Positions 10,475 to 23,880 of a DNA stretch of 64,000 nucleotides are shown here, in pieces. Below the pieces are notes generated by a model, which saw only the letters and a list, made by a program, of their open reading frames with translations, was not told the DNA's origin and searched no databases. Position 1 is the first letter of the stretch. Every line of letters begins with the position of its first letter. The stretch covers positions 1 to 64,000 of the IMG/VR virus record IMGVR_UViG_3300000956_000001, one strand, 5' to 3'. The position numbers and the translations under genes were made by a program. Source of the stretch: a virus.

Positions 10475-10569
10475 GTGAAGTCCTGCTGCATGACGCCCTT
10501 GACTTTCCGTGTGTGAATTTCGTAGCTACCCTTGCAGCCATTCGGGCACCTCATGTTTGATTCATTCAT
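10381..10569 (-). CDS. Small Zn-ribbon protein
   Basis: CPNGC...CLMC; ATGA overlap with the nuclease stop. Confidence 0.5.
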   Translation of the reverse strand: MNESNMRCPNGCKGSYEIHTRKVKGVMQQDFTCLMCQTPMELVVAIVHQQPSASPVRDQQNF

Positions 10570-11729
10570 GTCTTCTTCATCACCTTTACTTGAGGATCGC
10601 CCTGCTTGTAGCTGATCGCCGTATTCATGAGGCTAGCCTGTGCTGGACCGAGTCGCGGATCCTTGCGCAACGCATCCAGATCCCCCAGGTTAAGTCTACC
10701 GTAATCCTTCATCAGTTCCGGACCAATGATTGCAGACATGAGATCTCGATCGATGACTCGCTTTTTTGGAGCAACCACAGTTACCTTGTGGCGATCGAGA
10801 TCGAACTCAGTCATGTCCTCTTCGAGTGCATGCTTCATCATTGCAAGCTCGACGTCATCAATCGTTGACTTGATCGCTTCGACTTGACCCTTGAGCTGGT
10901 ACAGGAGTTCAGCCAGCTGTTCGATCGACAGCGTGAAGATGCCGCCCGCGCGCAGGTTGGATTGCAGTGCTTCGCACGTAAACCGCTTCGGACAGTACCG
11001 GCAGCCCTCGTTCAGTGTTTCCGGCGGATCCTCGAACGGAGTGTCTACGATGCGCTGAAGTTCCGCCATGAGGAACTTCCAGGTGTTGATGTTGTCCTGT
11101 TTGGTGAACAGTACGGCGACCCGCTCGTAGCGGAGGAAGTCGAACTGAACCCAGATTTCCTTTGCGTCAGGGAACTTGATCTGAACAGCGAGTGCGTACA
11201 GCTTCGGTTGGATCTTGTACTTCAGATCTTCCGGCTTGAGTGGCGTACGTTGCGACTTGTAGTCTACTACTCGGTAAACTCCTTCATCAAGCTTGTCTAG
11301 GCGGTCAATGATGAAGTTGCACGGCATTTCATAACGGACGTTATCAATCCAGTAAGGAACAACAAAGGTTTCCTTGATTTCACGAGAGATGATCTCGTTG
11401 TCAAGGATGTCATTCTGGATGTCGTTGCGGCCGTACCACTTCTGAAGGATGGCAAGACCATCATGCCACCATTCACCCTCCATGGGCTGACCCACGAATG
11501 TGAGTGCCCAGCCCTTCATGTAACCTTCGAGGAGGCGCTCCCATTCCCAGGCCATCGTTGCGACGTATTCTGGTTCGAGGAAGTACTCGAGTGCATAATG
11601 GAGCGTGGTACCAAGCCAGGCAGGCTCGCTGCCCTTGCCGGTACCACGCTCCATTGCTGTGGCCTTGAATCGGGCCATGCATTCGGCGGCGGTAGTCAGC
11701 GACGATGCACTGATGGACTTAGGAATCAC
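10566..11729 (-). CDS. Cas4/RecB-like PD-(D/E)xK exonuclease
   Basis: SASSL..AAEC, GTTLH, IIDRLD...VVDYKS, QPKLYA and CRYCPKRFTC (Fe-S-type Cys pattern). Confidence 0.85.
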   Translation of the reverse strand: MIPKSISASSLTTAAECMARFKATAMERGTGKGSEPAWLGTTLHYALEYFLEPEYVATMAWEWERLLEGYMKGWALTFVGQPMEGEWWHDGLAILQKWYGRNDIQNDILDNEIISREIKETFVVPYWIDNVRYEMPCNFIIDRLDKLDEGVYRVVDYKSQRTPLKPEDLKYKIQPKLYALAVQIKFPDAKEIWVQFDFLRYERVAVLFTKQDNINTWKFLMAELQRIVDTPFEDPPETLNEGCRYCPKRFTCEALQSNLRAGGIFTLSIEQLAELLYQLKGQVEAIKSTIDDVELAMMKHALEEDMTEFDLDRHKVTVVAPKKRVIDRDLMSAIIGPELMKDYGRLNLGDLDALRKDPRLGPAQASLMNTAISYKQGDPQVKVMKKT

Positions 11730-11959
11730 TGACCCACGTACCCATTGCGCTTGTCGTAGAGTGCGGCTCCGACACTGCGACGGTCGACACCTTCAGGTAC
11801 GTCGCACATCCCGAACTCTCCCTCATGGTCGTGCCACGGGTCATTAGGATTCTCGCCTGACTTGAGTGGATGTGCGTGATACACGCCACTCAGTGCCTTA
11901 CCGTGGCGGTGAAACATCTCCTCGGGGTATGCGACAACTTCGACGCGTTCGACTTTCAC
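11726..11959 (-). CDS. Hypothetical protein
   Basis: 77 aa, GTGA overlaps on both sides, GAGGAG RBS. Confidence 0.55.
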   Translation of the reverse strand: MKVERVEVVAYPEEMFHRHGKALSGVYHAHPLKSGENPNDPWHDHEGEFGMCDVPEGVDRRSVGAALYDKRNGYVGQ

Positions 11960-12135
11960 TTCTCCTCATCCTCCGGAACGAACTCGATCGAGAGGATCTG
12001 CGACGTCGGGATCATGAGCATGGTGCCTTCATCCTGATCGAAGGAGGTGTAGGAACCATTCTCGGTGATGAGCGTGCAGTCAACCTCGTAGGTCCTGTAC
12101 ATCGGACCTGCGGTCATGACGCTGTATTTTCTCAT
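11956..12135 (-). CDS. Hypothetical protein, 59 aa (not in ORF track)
   Basis: Translated by hand: MRKYSVMTAGPMYRTYEVDC...EFVPEDEEK*. Fills the gap exactly with 4-nt overlaps at both ends. Confidence 0.6.
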   Translation of the reverse strand: MRKYSVMTAGPMYRTYEVDCTLITENGSYTSFDQDEGTMLMIPTSQILSIEFVPEDEEK

Positions 12136-12383
12136 ACTGTATTCTCGTTTCCGTGCGCATGCAGAACAGTACGCTCGAGTTCTGCACGAAGATCTGATGC
12201 GAGTTGTGGTAGGTCATTCTCGCATGCGTCTGCATACGCAGAGAGTGCTATTCTGGCGTACGGGTCCTGAGCATAGTCAAGAACAAAGTAACTTGCTCCA
12301 TCTTTGTCGCCACCTGGTAGATCGCGACCATCAAGACGGCGAGTTTCAAATTTCGCGTACATTCCGTCGCGAGGCTTTTTCAT
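12132..12383 (-). CDS. Hypothetical protein
   Basis: 83 aa, AAGGAG RBS, 4-nt overlaps. Confidence 0.6.
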   Translation of the reverse strand: MKKPRDGMYAKFETRRLDGRDLPGGDKDGASYFVLDYAQDPYARIALSAYADACENDLPQLASDLRAELERTVLHAHGNENTV

Positions 12384-12823
12384 GCCTGTTGCTCCTTGGG
12401 CTCCAGCTGATTTCCGTGTGTGGAGCGAGTGCGACGCTTGCCGCCCCAGATGCCAACTCTCGCACCCGCCCTGTCAGCGTAGTCATTACATTCGGATCGT
12501 ACCGTGCATCGCATGCAGTACTGAAGTACTGCTAGTTCGCTGGTTTCTCCGCGTCCTGGGAAGAAGAGATCAGTGCTGCTGGAAGCGGCTCCAACTCCCA
12601 GGCAGGCGGCGGCTGAAATCCAAGGCTCGTCGACAAGCTGAGGGACGGATCCGACGGGCTCGATTCCTTCTCCGCAGATGCAGGGGTGACCGGCTCGGCC
12701 GACAGGGAACTCGGATGTGTTGGGTTCGCTGGCTCCGTCGGGGACGGGGGCGTCTCTGAGGAACCGCTTCCGGAGTCGCTCGCACTGTCGGTTGCAGACG
12801 AGGTCACAGCTTTTGGGTCCACA
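12380..12823 (-). CDS. whiB: WhiB-family Fe-S transcription factor; open frame lacks an upstream ATG/GTG/TTG (not in ORF track)
   Basis: Hand translation gives W-ISAAAC-LGVGAASSST-DLFFP-GRGETSELAVLQY-CMRC-TVRSE-C-NDYADRAGARV-GIWGG-KRR: four Cys plus the G[IV]WGG signature. Its stop overlaps the next ATG. Confidence 0.85.
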   Translation of the reverse strand, partial: CGPKSCDLVCNRQCERLRKRFLRDAPVPDGASEPNTSEFPVGRAGHPCICGEGIEPVGSVPQLVDEPWISAAACLGVGAASSSTDLFFPGRGETSELAVLQYCMRCTVRSECNDYADRAGARVGIWGGKRRTRSTHGNQLEPKEQQA

Positions 12824-13101
12824 TCAGCTGGAGTCTCAGCTTCCTGCGTCTCTGCTGCATACTTCGCTGCGTTCTCGGCGATGATCTCGTGGGCCGTCTT
12901 CTTCTCGATCACTGGTTCGACCTCAGCCAGAACCCGAGGACGCACGTCGCGCACTGCATCAGCAGTGCGCGACGGCGCGAAGATCATGATGGGGATAACC
13001 TCTGTCGCCTTTTCGGAGGGTGGCGGCGTTGGCACCGTACTGCCCGTTGCGACTGATACTGCCATGCTGTACGGCTTGAGTTCACGCGGCTCGTTATCCA
13101 T
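12532..13101 (-). CDS. Hypothetical protein; likely N-terminal partner of WhiB via -1 frameshift
   Basis: 189 aa. The C-terminal Ser/Pro-rich half overlaps the WhiB frame. Contains C CCA AAA at 12817-12811. Confidence 0.55.
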   Translation of the reverse strand: MDNEPRELKPYSMAVSVATGSTVPTPPPSEKATEVIPIMIFAPSRTADAVRDVRPRVLAEVEPVIEKKTAHEIIAENAAKYAAETQEAETPADVDPKAVTSSATDSASDSGSGSSETPPSPTEPANPTHPSSLSAEPVTPASAEKESSPSDPSLSLSTSLGFQPPPAWELEPLPAALISSSQDAEKPAN

Positions 13102-13110
13102 GATGCTTCC

Positions 13111-13860
13111 CTAGAACATTGCCTCCTCTGCCGTATCGAACTTCTTCTTCGCGATCTCATAGTTGTGCGCGCTCAGTTCGATTGACACGCAGGAGCGCTT
13201 TTCTGCTCTCGCTGCGCGTACCGTACTTGAACTGCCACCGAAGGGATCAACGATGAAGTCGTTGGGCGAGGTGCTGTGACGAATGAGTTCGCCAAGGAGT
13301 GCGAGTGGCTTCTCGTGGGGATGGATGAGGTCCTGCGGTCGCACCTGTGGATACCGGAGTACCCCGTTGCGACGTTCTGTGGATCTGGGCCGATTCCCCT
13401 TCTTAAGGAAGATGATGAACTCGTACCCAATGCCCCATCCATCGAGGTACCCCATCCCCGGGCCATCTTTCTCCCAGATCAGCGGGCTGCCTACTCGACG
13501 AAATCCGTGACGCCCCAAATCATCCGTTACCTGAAGCCATTCCTTCAATACCTGCCCAGACGTGAACACGTACAGATCCGCGTTATCGGCGGTTTTTGGC
13601 AACAGGCTATCCATCACGGAATTAAAAGTTGCGATGGCAATTTCAGGAGTCTCGTCATTCGCGATCTTTCGTGCGTTCGCCTTCCCCTCTGCTGTTGTCG
13701 CCATGTTGCTCTGATTGTTCACTCCGAATGGCGGATCGGTAATCACGCAGTCCACTGAGCCCGGGTGGAAGCGCTGACATAGCTCGATCGAGTCGCCGTT
13801 CCAGATCTGTTGGAACAGGGGCTTGGGTCTTGGCGTTGTCGGCTCTGCCAGTGTCGTCAT
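13111..13860 (-). CDS. DNA methyltransferase (N6A/N4C, beta class)
   Basis: Motif IV VITDPPF precedes HPHEKP and motif I VDPFGGS. Likely start MTTLAEP at 13860. Confidence 0.9.
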   Translation of the reverse strand: MTTLAEPTTPRPKPLFQQIWNGDSIELCQRFHPGSVDCVITDPPFGVNNQSNMATTAEGKANARKIANDETPEIAIATFNSVMDSLLPKTADNADLYVFTSGQVLKEWLQVTDDLGRHGFRRVGSPLIWEKDGPGMGYLDGWGIGYEFIIFLKKGNRPRSTERRNGVLRYPQVRPQDLIHPHEKPLALLGELIRHSTSPNDFIVDPFGGSSSTVRAARAEKRSCVSIELSAHNYEIAKKKFDTAEEAMF

Positions 13861-14104
13861 CTTCGGCTCCGAGGGTTTCTTTTGGCAATGATCTGAGTGC
13901 GGCGCCCAAGAGGGCAAGCGGATTAAGTGCCTTGACTGGGAATCCCGTTATCCGTGTGCGCGCCAGTCCGAAGACTCCTTCTCCTCGGTCCGCGTAGGCG
14001 AGCACTGTATAATCAGCGAGTTCACCCTGGTTTCTGAGTTCAGTCTGTGTGATTTGGATATCACCAACGAATCTGCCGTTTTCATCGTGCAGTATGACTT
14101 TCAT
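13655..14104 (-). CDS. Hypothetical protein (C-terminus overlaps the MTase)
   Basis: 149 aa, ATGA overlap upstream. Confidence 0.5.
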   Translation of the reverse strand: MKVILHDENGRFVGDIQITQTELRNQGELADYTVLAYADRGEGVFGLARTRITGFPVKALNPLALLGAALRSLPKETLGAEDDDTGRADNAKTQAPVPTDLERRLDRAMSALPPGLSGLRDYRSAIRSEQSEQHGDNSRGEGERTKDRE

Positions 14105-14502
14105 GGAGTCACAACGTACCTGACGCTGCCGTTGACGTTCATCGACTTGATGATGTTGGCGTAAACAGATACCGCACCAGCGTAGGCAACGACAGCATAA
14201 CCATCGTCTGGGAACTCGACGGTCATCTGCTTGAGGTAAACAAGCAGATCGACAACCTCTTCCAGGGCATCCTGGCGCGAGTTGCGCCCGTTGTTGGCCT
14301 GAAGAATGGTGCCATGCTTGTTCAGGCCATACGCTTTCCGGTAGCGTAGGTAGTCGAGCATCTGGGCCTTTGTCATGTCGCTAACCCTTAGGTGTGCGAG
14401 CATGTGTCCTCGAAGGTCAATGCACACCAGGTCATGCATTGAGGCACCGCCATTGGGCACCGGAGCGGGTTCGCCGTTGACGTAGTCAGGAGTGTCAGCC
14501 AT
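14101..14502 (-). CDS. Hypothetical protein
   Basis: 133 aa with helical DALEEVVDLLVYLKQ (loosely MazG-like pattern); operon packing. Confidence 0.55.
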   Translation of the reverse strand: MADTPDYVNGEPAPVPNGGASMHDLVCIDLRGHMLAHLRVSDMTKAQMLDYLRYRKAYGLNKHGTILQANNGRNSRQDALEEVVDLLVYLKQMTVEFPDDGYAVVAYAGAVSVYANIIKSMNVNGSVRYVVTP

Positions 14503-22829: not shown

Positions 22830-23373
22830 TGCGTGCCTCCTCTCCGTCAGAATGACCCTCGTAGTACTCGTCCAGGTTGGCTTCGAGCTTCTCCAACTCT
22901 ACAGGGGAAAGGGTAGATTCTCCATCCAGTCCCTGCCGGTACCCGAGATCATAGGAGACGTGACGATCACTGAAGATGCCGTCGACGTACGCTGTCTTGG
23001 GATCTTCGGCGAGCAGCGTTTCGTAATCCGGCTGGTCGATCGCAAGACCAGCGCGCATCTTCGAGATGCAATCCCGACACGCCAGGCGTCCACTACGTGA
23101 CCGCAGGACAGCGCTATCCTTTTTCTTCCCATGCACCCACGAAGTAATTTCCTCGTGCGTGTCGGGATCGCTTGGATCGACACGGCGCTGACAAAAGCAG
23201 CACTGGTGCCGTGTCGTAAGATCAGGTTCCTCTTGTGTAACAGCGTTTTCTTCATGTGCCTCGTCTCCGGAGGGAGGATCAAACAAGGCTTCCTGGCAAG
23301 TTTCCAGTACCTGATGGTATCCAGTACCGATGTCAATCGTGGGCGAGTCCGTCGGTCCAGTGGACGGTTCCAT
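22786..23373 (-). CDS. Hypothetical protein (start uncertain)
   Basis: CCFC...CRDC with an acidic C-terminus. Confidence 0.5.
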   Translation of the reverse strand: MEPSTGPTDSPTIDIGTGYHQVLETCQEALFDPPSGDEAHEENAVTQEEPDLTTRHQCCFCQRRVDPSDPDTHEEITSWVHGKKKDSAVLRSRSGRLACRDCISKMRAGLAIDQPDYETLLAEDPKTAYVDGIFSDRHVSYDLGYRQGLDGESTLSPVELEKLEANLDEYYEGHSDGEEARIAKDRLGTPLSEQD

Positions 23374-23518
23374 CAGCGTCTACTCTCATCCCAGGTCCGA
23401 TTACTGCTTCAGTGAATGGATCGCGCACCTGCTGGAGGACAGGCTCGCCGGACGGTGCGTCGGGATCGAAGAACTGACTTACGTCAAAATCCCTTTGTTC
23501 GGGCGTCAGCTCGGCCAC
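23333..23518 (-). CDS. Hypothetical protein
   Basis: 61 aa, 1-nt overlap with the upstream stop. Confidence 0.45.
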   Translation of the reverse strand: MAELTPEQRDFDVSQFFDPDAPSGEPVLQQVRDPFTEAVIGPGMRVDADGTVHWTDGLAHD

Positions 23519-23880
23519 TAGATGCCGTGCATCGAGGTCTCGTGCGCCGTGCTACCACAGGTCAGGCACGCCTTGTGCTTGAGTTGCAGGTAGACCGACA
23601 GCTGGCCCGACAGGTAGTGCGGAAACACTGTGTCAGCTTGCGTTGCAAGATGCTGCATGAGCGTGAACAGCGTGTACGTGTGTTCAGCGTTCATCTCTCT
23701 CATCATGCGGTCGATCGAGGCGCGCAACTCTTGCGCCTGTGCATGCGCGCGATCGTGGGCTTCTTGCTGAGCCTTGATGAATGCAGCTGGTCCCACGATT
23801 ACCATTTCTCCGTCACTGTGCGTCTCGATGTCTTGATCATTCTCTTCGTTTTCATCTGGAACGTCGGCATCTTCGCTCAT
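23518..23880 (-). CDS. Hypothetical protein
   Basis: 120 aa, acidic N-terminus, CLTC near the C-terminus. Confidence 0.55.
   Translation of the reverse strand: MSEDADVPDENEENDQDIETHSDGEMVIVGPAAFIKAQQEAHDRAHAQAQELRASIDRMMREMNAEHTYTLFTLMQHLATQADTVFPHYLSGQLSVYLQLKHKACLTCGSTAHETSMHGI

Follow-up and report, generated by a model that had tools for sequence, protein, structure and literature searches.

We find that an uncultivated soil phage very probably makes a WhiB-like (Wbl) transcription regulator through a conserved programmed -1 ribosomal frameshift at the slippery heptamer C CCA AAA. The stretch of DNA analysed here (the window) is the first 64 kb (positions 1 to 64,000) of the 82.6-kb IMG/VR virus record IMGVR_UViG_3300000956_000001, which has direct terminal repeats and was assembled from a soil metagenome. 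In the proposed scheme, ribosomes would start at the ATG at 13101 on the minus strand and translate 97 codons, after which a fraction of them would slip one base back at the heptamer (12817-12811), with tRNA-Pro moving from CCA onto CCC and tRNA-Lys from AAA onto AAA. The slipped ribosomes would make a fusion of about 240 amino acids (aa) in which an N-terminal part is followed by a four-cysteine module and then by a WhiB regulator domain of the [4Fe-4S] type, and those that do not slip would finish a 189-aa protein with a low-complexity tail.

Two overlapping frames on the minus strand

The zero-frame open reading frame (ORF), which we call ORF189, runs on the minus strand from the ATG at 13101 to a TAG at 12534-12532 (13101..12532). 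Its 189-aa product, made without a slip, consists of a 97-aa N-terminal part and a 92-aa tail rich in Ser, Pro, Thr and Glu, and had no Pfam or PHROG family match. The N-terminal part, which would be common to both products, spans 97 codons ending in ...DVDPK (12811..13101, minus strand) and was delimited from the translations of 19 loci and of the IMG/VR loci described below. At 97 aa, it is towards the long end of the range seen in the 19 loci (32–106 aa). It has short motifs in common with relatives (RELKPY resembles RELQPF of phage Reynauld, and DVRPR resembles DFRPK/R), and a search of the protein atlas with it returned nothing.

The zero-frame codons at 12825-12808 are GAT GTG GAC CCA AAA GCT, which places the heptamer (12817-12811, minus strand) in the X XXY YYZ register with the zero frame, as the first-pass annotation of this DNA had read it. 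The -1 frame is open from 12823 to a TGA at 12382-12380 (147 codons; translation P0001), also as first described. Because it is closed upstream by a TGA (12824..12826, minus strand) that lies two codons before the heptamer, the site of the frame change is fixed. From the heptamer onwards, the -1 frame continues for 143 codons plus its TGA stop (12380..12811, minus strand) and encodes first the four-cysteine module and, 3' of it, the WhiB domain. The window's -1 frame has a single ATG, GTG or TTG codon, an ATG at codon 104, which is within the WhiB domain, in agreement with the earlier statement that no such codon precedes the first WhiB cysteine. A -1 slip would yield the junction ...DVDPK/SCDLVC... 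and a predicted fusion of 97 + 143 = 240 aa; our translation thus gives the same 189-aa short product, WhiB-ended fusion and junction peptide (DVDPKSCDLVC) as had been proposed. The junction of the window reads Pro-Lys-Ser-Cys-Asp-Leu-Val-Cys, compared with Pro-Lys-Arg-Leu-Val-Cys in most relatives.

A complete WhiB domain behind a second four-cysteine module

The WhiB domain (12434..12622, minus strand) was identified by Pfam, by profile matches to the PDB and by Foldseek. Pfam WhiB (PF02467) matches residues 68–130 of the -1 frame translation (E = 4e-10, 40.5 bits, cut-off 23.6), confirming that the domain claimed for this frame is present and complete. The PDB profile search returned WhiB at E = 4.5e-16 as well as WhiB1, WhiB3, WhiB4 and WhiB7. 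The family is defined by four invariant cysteines and a G[V/I]WGG motif (PMC6282962), and these hallmarks are complete here (Cys74, Cys103, Cys106 and Cys112, with GIWGG at 124–128, in P0001 numbering). Foldseek returned WhiB structures only, matched via the WhiB domain alone. This part of the predicted fusion is similar to Wbl structures solved in complex with sigma-A region 4, and both a [4Fe-4S] cluster and sigma-A binding are predicted for it. On this view, the fusion would redirect host transcription through binding to sigma-A region 4, as other Wbl proteins of phages and hosts do. A usual Wbl trait, that of a small free-standing protein with its own start, is absent in the window, where the domain has no start and forms part of a predicted 240-aa fusion.

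The codon at which a start might be expected is an ATT (12617..12619, minus strand; Ile69 of P0001); at the aligned position, the nearest called WhiB proteins (P0002–P0006) and the nearest relative, the metagenome contig L035, have their ATG start. Because this aligned codon is ATT and not ATG, the window has no internal WhiB start. As the internal ATG of some relatives is replaced in this way, the predicted fusion is the one way in which this phage could plausibly make a complete WhiB domain.

Between the heptamer and the WhiB domain lies the four-cysteine module, CX3C ... CXCGEG (12665..12796, minus strand), defined by residues that are invariant in four alignments (A3, A4, A6 and A7). The CX3C pair is directly 3' of the heptamer, CXCGEG follows some 30–60 residues further on, and WhiB comes last. 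In the window, the cysteines are at 12796-12794, 12784-12782, 12682-12680 and 12676-12674, followed by Gly-Glu-Gly at 12673-12665. The four cysteines and Gly-Glu-Gly are invariant in 17–18 sequences that are each 30–49% identical to the window, and, from locus to locus, the cysteine codons may be TGT or TGC without any change of residue. More distant uncultivated members keep all four cysteines, with the third and fourth spaced as CXC, CX3C or about CX15C. Four IMG/VR members (L085, L097, L101 and L110) help to define the module, as they have CX3C or about CX15C for CXC and Gly-Gln-Gly or Gly-Leu-Gly for Gly-Glu-Gly. No start codon can reach the four invariant module cysteines in the -1 frame.

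The module is presumably metal-binding, given its four invariant cysteines. It matched no solved structure in the PDB profile search, scored at most 0.76 in the protein atlas, and was covered by no called protein among 1.8 billion representatives and a 5.8-billion-cluster collection, in which only WhiB domains of 65–123 aa are called. An AlphaFold2 model (from alignment A5) had a mean pLDDT of 71.9, with only 57–73 in the module, hence we make no claim about its fold. There are signs of purifying selection on the -1 frame 3' of the heptamer, both in the invariant residues and, for two of three groups of relatives, in the fraction of substitutions within the overlap that are synonymous: the -1 frame has the highest fraction, with the values for the remaining two frames given second, among Gmala1, GMA3 and Jumbo (0.34 vs 0.22 and 0.14) and between Perlina and ReqiDocB7 (0.44 vs 0.21 and 0.15).

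Conservation of the heptamer and the frame offset in relatives

Of 50,697 phage records searched by tblastn with the -1 frame in full, 138 matched, mostly Gordonia, Rhodococcus and Tsukamurella phages of 72–84 kb. The matches often begin at query residue 8 and cross an annotated upstream 'hypothetical protein' into WhiB. From these, we took 18 loci of isolate phages (of Gordonia, Rhodococcus and Tsukamurella) that were spread over the tblastn diversity, chosen by protein similarity alone and sequenced by several laboratories. A canonical heptamer was found at the same place in 18/18 of these loci (CCCAAAA in 10, CCCTTTA in 8), in register with the depositors' own upstream ORF, and the -1 frame upstream of WhiB was open back to the heptamer in every one.

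We then considered a broader set of 28 loci, consisting of the window, the 18 phage loci, contig L035 and 8 uncultivated IMG/VR loci with the full two-frame layout. The IMG/VR loci were found with a pattern that contained the heptamer, so they show breadth and are not an unbiased test of conservation. All 28 loci have CCCAAAA or CCCTTTA in register, and the placement is repeated in 27/27 loci besides the window, so both the slippery site and the frame offset reported at first for this one genome are kept in its relatives. The predicted recoding layout is therefore common to at least 27 related phage loci. The boundary of the -1 frame is also telling: its upstream stop lies two codons before the heptamer in the window, one codon before it in GMA3 and Jumbo, and directly abuts it in Gmala1 and RobinSparkles. 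Because the frame opens exactly at the heptamer in the latter two phages, nothing 5' of it could be read in the -1 frame. The switch between CCCAAAA and CCCTTTA alters residues in both frames (Lys to Leu, Lys to Phe) and keeps the slippery pattern.

By protein similarity, the nearest relative is L035, with 50% identity over residues 2–135; as in the window, its heptamer lies within GAC CCA AAA GC, with a TGA two codons before it. At the DNA level, a blastn search of the phage collection with the locus found no match, a search of IMG/VR for relatives with P0001 alone confirmed none, and a GGGAAAA version of the pattern gave chance matches only. A further locus (L036:1440, JACCDR010027722.1) has an in-register CCCAAAA followed by a WhiB frame that has no usable start and in which the four-cysteine module is missing, and may represent a simpler, second form of the same recoding.

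The zero frame is open for 44–124 codons 3' of the heptamer in 28/28 loci and encodes a Ser/Pro/Thr/Glu-rich tail; its stop density further downstream is 0.024 per codon. In the CCCTTTA group, the zero-frame stop coincides with the first WhiB cysteine codon. The retention of a tail of at least 44 codons in 28/28 loci suggests that the short zero-frame product is also kept.

The heptamer as a nucleotide signal

CCCAAAA is not rare by itself, as the window has 4 copies vs 4.5 expected. There are about 8 registers between the -1 stop and the first conserved cysteine, giving a chance of about 1.6% for such a placement in a single genome. The significance of the heptamer thus rests on its position and conservation, not on its rarity. 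Only one other in-register heptamer of the window is followed by a long -1 extension. This heptamer, CCCTTTG (plus strand, 23491), is in a 63-aa ORF (23330-23521) that is antisense to minus-strand genes and most likely spurious.

Codon usage points the same way as position. AAA makes up 15% of Lys codons in the long ORFs of the window, 24% in loci with CCCAAAA and 11% in those with CCCTTTA, and TTA makes up 0.4% of Leu codons in the long ORFs of the window and 1–3% in the fetched loci. Every locus nonetheless has AAA or TTA at the A-site position of the heptamer, even though these codons are locally disfavoured. Judged by this codon choice, the heptamer is selected as nucleotides. C_CC.A_AA.A belongs to the V_VV.A_AA.R class, the most efficient heptamers in E. 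coli, where about 61% of heptamers are prone to shift even without a stimulator (PMC4066793).

A rare A-site codon could help the slip by pausing the ribosome. ARAGORN found no tRNA genes in the window (1-64000), so the phage supplies no tRNA-Lys of its own for this codon, at least within the window. Because the A-site codon is always rare (AAA or TTA), we can imagine, as an unlikely extension of the frameshift, that the slip is a tuned sensor: the share of ribosomes entering the WhiB frame would track host tRNA supply for the rare codon, and hence the physiological state of the host, and the ratio of the 189-aa protein to the fusion (with its two metal centres) would control when, or whether, host sigma-A-dependent transcription is taken over.

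Weighing the frameshift against other explanations

Several observations weigh against a programmed frameshift. Folding of the RNA 3' of the heptamer revealed no conserved structure (single-sequence fold z-scores of -1.8 to +1.4; RNAalifold consensus of -0.22 kcal/mol), and the Shine-Dalgarno (SD)-like stretch that lies 1–15 nt 5' of the heptamer in 13/19 loci (4–15 nt in 12) is absent from the window. A stimulatory element is not obligatory for a programmed -1 site. In the CCCTTTA group, substitutions show no frame preference (0.29, 0.28 and 0.33), and C CCU UUA is outside the top efficiency class in E. coli (PMC4066793). Lastly, in 13/28 loci the WhiB domain is immediately preceded by an ATG or GTG in its frame, from which a stand-alone WhiB protein could also be made; the other 15 have no ATG, GTG or TTG between the heptamer and the first WhiB cysteine. 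The 13 loci with an internal start keep both the heptamer and, upstream in the -1 frame, the start-less conserved four-cysteine module.

These internal starts would also fit a reading in which WhiB is translated alone in the window from a non-canonical start, with the upstream part of the -1 frame untranslated. The candidate codons are the ATT noted above (12619-12617), at exactly the ATG start position of the nearest called WhiB proteins, and an ATC (12664-12662), which follows the SD-like GGAGAAGG and had been put forward in the first-pass annotation. The ATT has no good SD sequence before it. The ATC did not survive comparison with relatives, as GGAGAAGG merely encodes the invariant Gly-Glu-Gly of the module and other codons follow it in relatives. 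A non-canonical start would moreover leave unexplained both the conserved heptamer and an invariant, start-less CX3C ... CXCGEG module in the same frame. We consider such a start very unlikely as the sole route, although it may be a minor extra route beside the frameshift. It is also improbable, somewhat more so, that the heptamer is conserved only as coding sequence for Pro-Lys or Pro-Leu, with the four-cysteine frame an untranslated by-product or reached by another route. The N-terminal part is indeed a conserved protein segment in itself, and the lack of frame-specific substitution bias in the CCCTTTA group would fit, but Pro and Lys or Leu are always encoded by slippery, locally disfavoured codons, the change from AAA to TTT alters residues in both frames while the slippery pattern stays, and the module cysteines are fixed while their codons vary between TGT and TGC.

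Transcriptional slippage, in which RNA polymerase adds or drops a base in the A4 or T3 run and joins the frames in the mRNA, would make the same protein and would likewise select for a conserved run. We give it only a slim chance, because the runs here are only A4 and T3, whereas productive slippage needs about 6–9 identical bases, and because the conserved feature is the full X XXY YYZ in codon register, which is relevant to tRNA re-pairing and not to the polymerase. That the two frames are an artefact, with a true single-frame gene broken by an assembly or sequencing indel or decaying as a pseudogene, is close to excluded. A single-base error had been raised as an alternative from the outset; errors are common in homopolymer runs, and the sequence comes from a metagenome assembly. 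Logan contigs of four runs over 12300-13200 (word depth of about 7–13) had no changed letter and no indel; all four runs come from the probable source sample and are not independent of the assembly, so that this check is weak alone. Among public sequencing runs, none of RNA was listed as having the locus. The question of an assembly error is instead settled by the comparison with relatives, because 18 isolate genomes from several laboratories and 9 other uncultivated loci have this two-frame layout too, and the WhiB domain retains every invariant residue.

Genomic neighbourhood and public annotations

The gene lies between an N6/N4 DNA methylase upstream (13111-13917, minus strand) and a Cas4/RecB-like exonuclease downstream (10566-11729, minus strand). 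Directly downstream is an 83-aa ORF (12132..12383, minus strand) whose ATG overlaps the TGA of the WhiB frame as ATGA (12380-12383), an arrangement typical of translational coupling. This ORF matches phrog_9572 ('sulfatase-modifying factor enzyme', E = 5.6e-23) over part of the 171-position profile, and the label is doubtful given how small the protein is. In the stretch 11900-14200, we found no promoter-like site, and two terminator-like matches were not above shuffled sequence; together with the ATGA overlap, this fits a single minus-strand operon. The gene order methylase, short ORF, WhiB, exonuclease recurs in 10/18 fetched phage loci, and the other 8 have a RusA resolvase upstream.

The predicted frameshift was missed in 18/18 public annotations examined, in which WhiB is missing, a 33-aa stub or internally started. 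It is unannotated in five records (Camerico, TIN2, TIN4, Amore2 and Chelms) and a 33-aa stub in three (MrWormie, Jellybones and Gorko), and the annotated WhiB of Mbo2 begins after Cys1. WhiB was omitted, stubbed or started late in these records because no canonical start lies between the heptamer and the first WhiB cysteine. PHROGs family phrog_11832 (33 positions) matches only residues 104–128 of the WhiB frame and was apparently built from the 33-aa stub annotations of related phages.

Comparison with known systems

Programmed -1 frameshifting is known mainly from tail assembly chaperones in phages, and from insertion sequence (IS) elements and dnaX in bacteria. A literature search found no description of a WhiB frameshift, and this class of recoding is apparently unpublished. 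Across a large group of actinophages, a frameshift appears to control the production of a transcription regulator that has an extra, uncharacterised four-cysteine module, and a domain architecture new to the Wbl family would be added. The frameshift would also offer a directly testable case of recoding for high-GC Gram-positive hosts, where few are documented; isolated relatives are available on Gordonia terrae.

Within the Wbl family, the window's domain is like other members, including WhiBTM4 of phage TM4, in its four invariant cysteines, its G[V/I]WGG motif and its fold, which is that of WhiB, WhiB1 and WhiB3 bound to sigma-A region 4. WhiBTM4 interferes with host WhiB2, and Wbl proteins are typically free-standing, with 81–139 aa and their own start (PMC6282962). 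Here, by contrast, the domain would be the C-terminal third of a predicted 240-aa trans-frame fusion, behind a second four-cysteine module.

As for the recoding itself, the tau/gamma frameshift of E. coli dnaX is similar in that a shift-prone tRNA-Lys slips by -1 on a heptamer with Lys codons. Upstream of its heptamer, dnaX has an SD-like stimulator, comparable to the SD-like stretch in 13/19 loci here, though not in the window. In dnaX, however, a stop follows immediately in the -1 frame and the protein is shorter, whereas here it would add 143 residues and two domains. The tail assembly chaperones G/GT are also alike, in that a phage gene with a conserved -1 heptamer shift yields two proteins that share their N-terminus. 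Their frameshift, the one routinely annotated in actinophages, often has no obvious stimulatory structure. The window's gene differs in lying in a block of DNA-metabolism and regulatory genes (methylase to exonuclease) instead of before a tape-measure gene, and in encoding a regulator and not a structural chaperone. The IS3-family OrfA/OrfAB system (IS911, IS3, IS150) has overlapping ORFs, the second in the -1 frame without a start, and an X XXY YYZ heptamer in the overlap (PMC13313380, PMC4066793), all as seen here; in both cases there is a short zero-frame product and a fusion with a common N-terminus, with a DNA-related domain in the fusion only, although for the window both products are predicted. 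Unlike in that family, there is no transposase, inverted repeats or mobile element here (the sole Pfam match in the -1 ORF is WhiB, with no DDE transposase domain), and the added domain is a predicted Fe-S transcription regulator. We also found no downstream pseudoknot or hairpin, and the zero frame continues for 44–124 codons instead of stopping soon after the site. With no transposase and no tail context, the window's gene belongs to neither the IS3-family OrfA/OrfAB nor the G/GT group, though its logic is closest to both.

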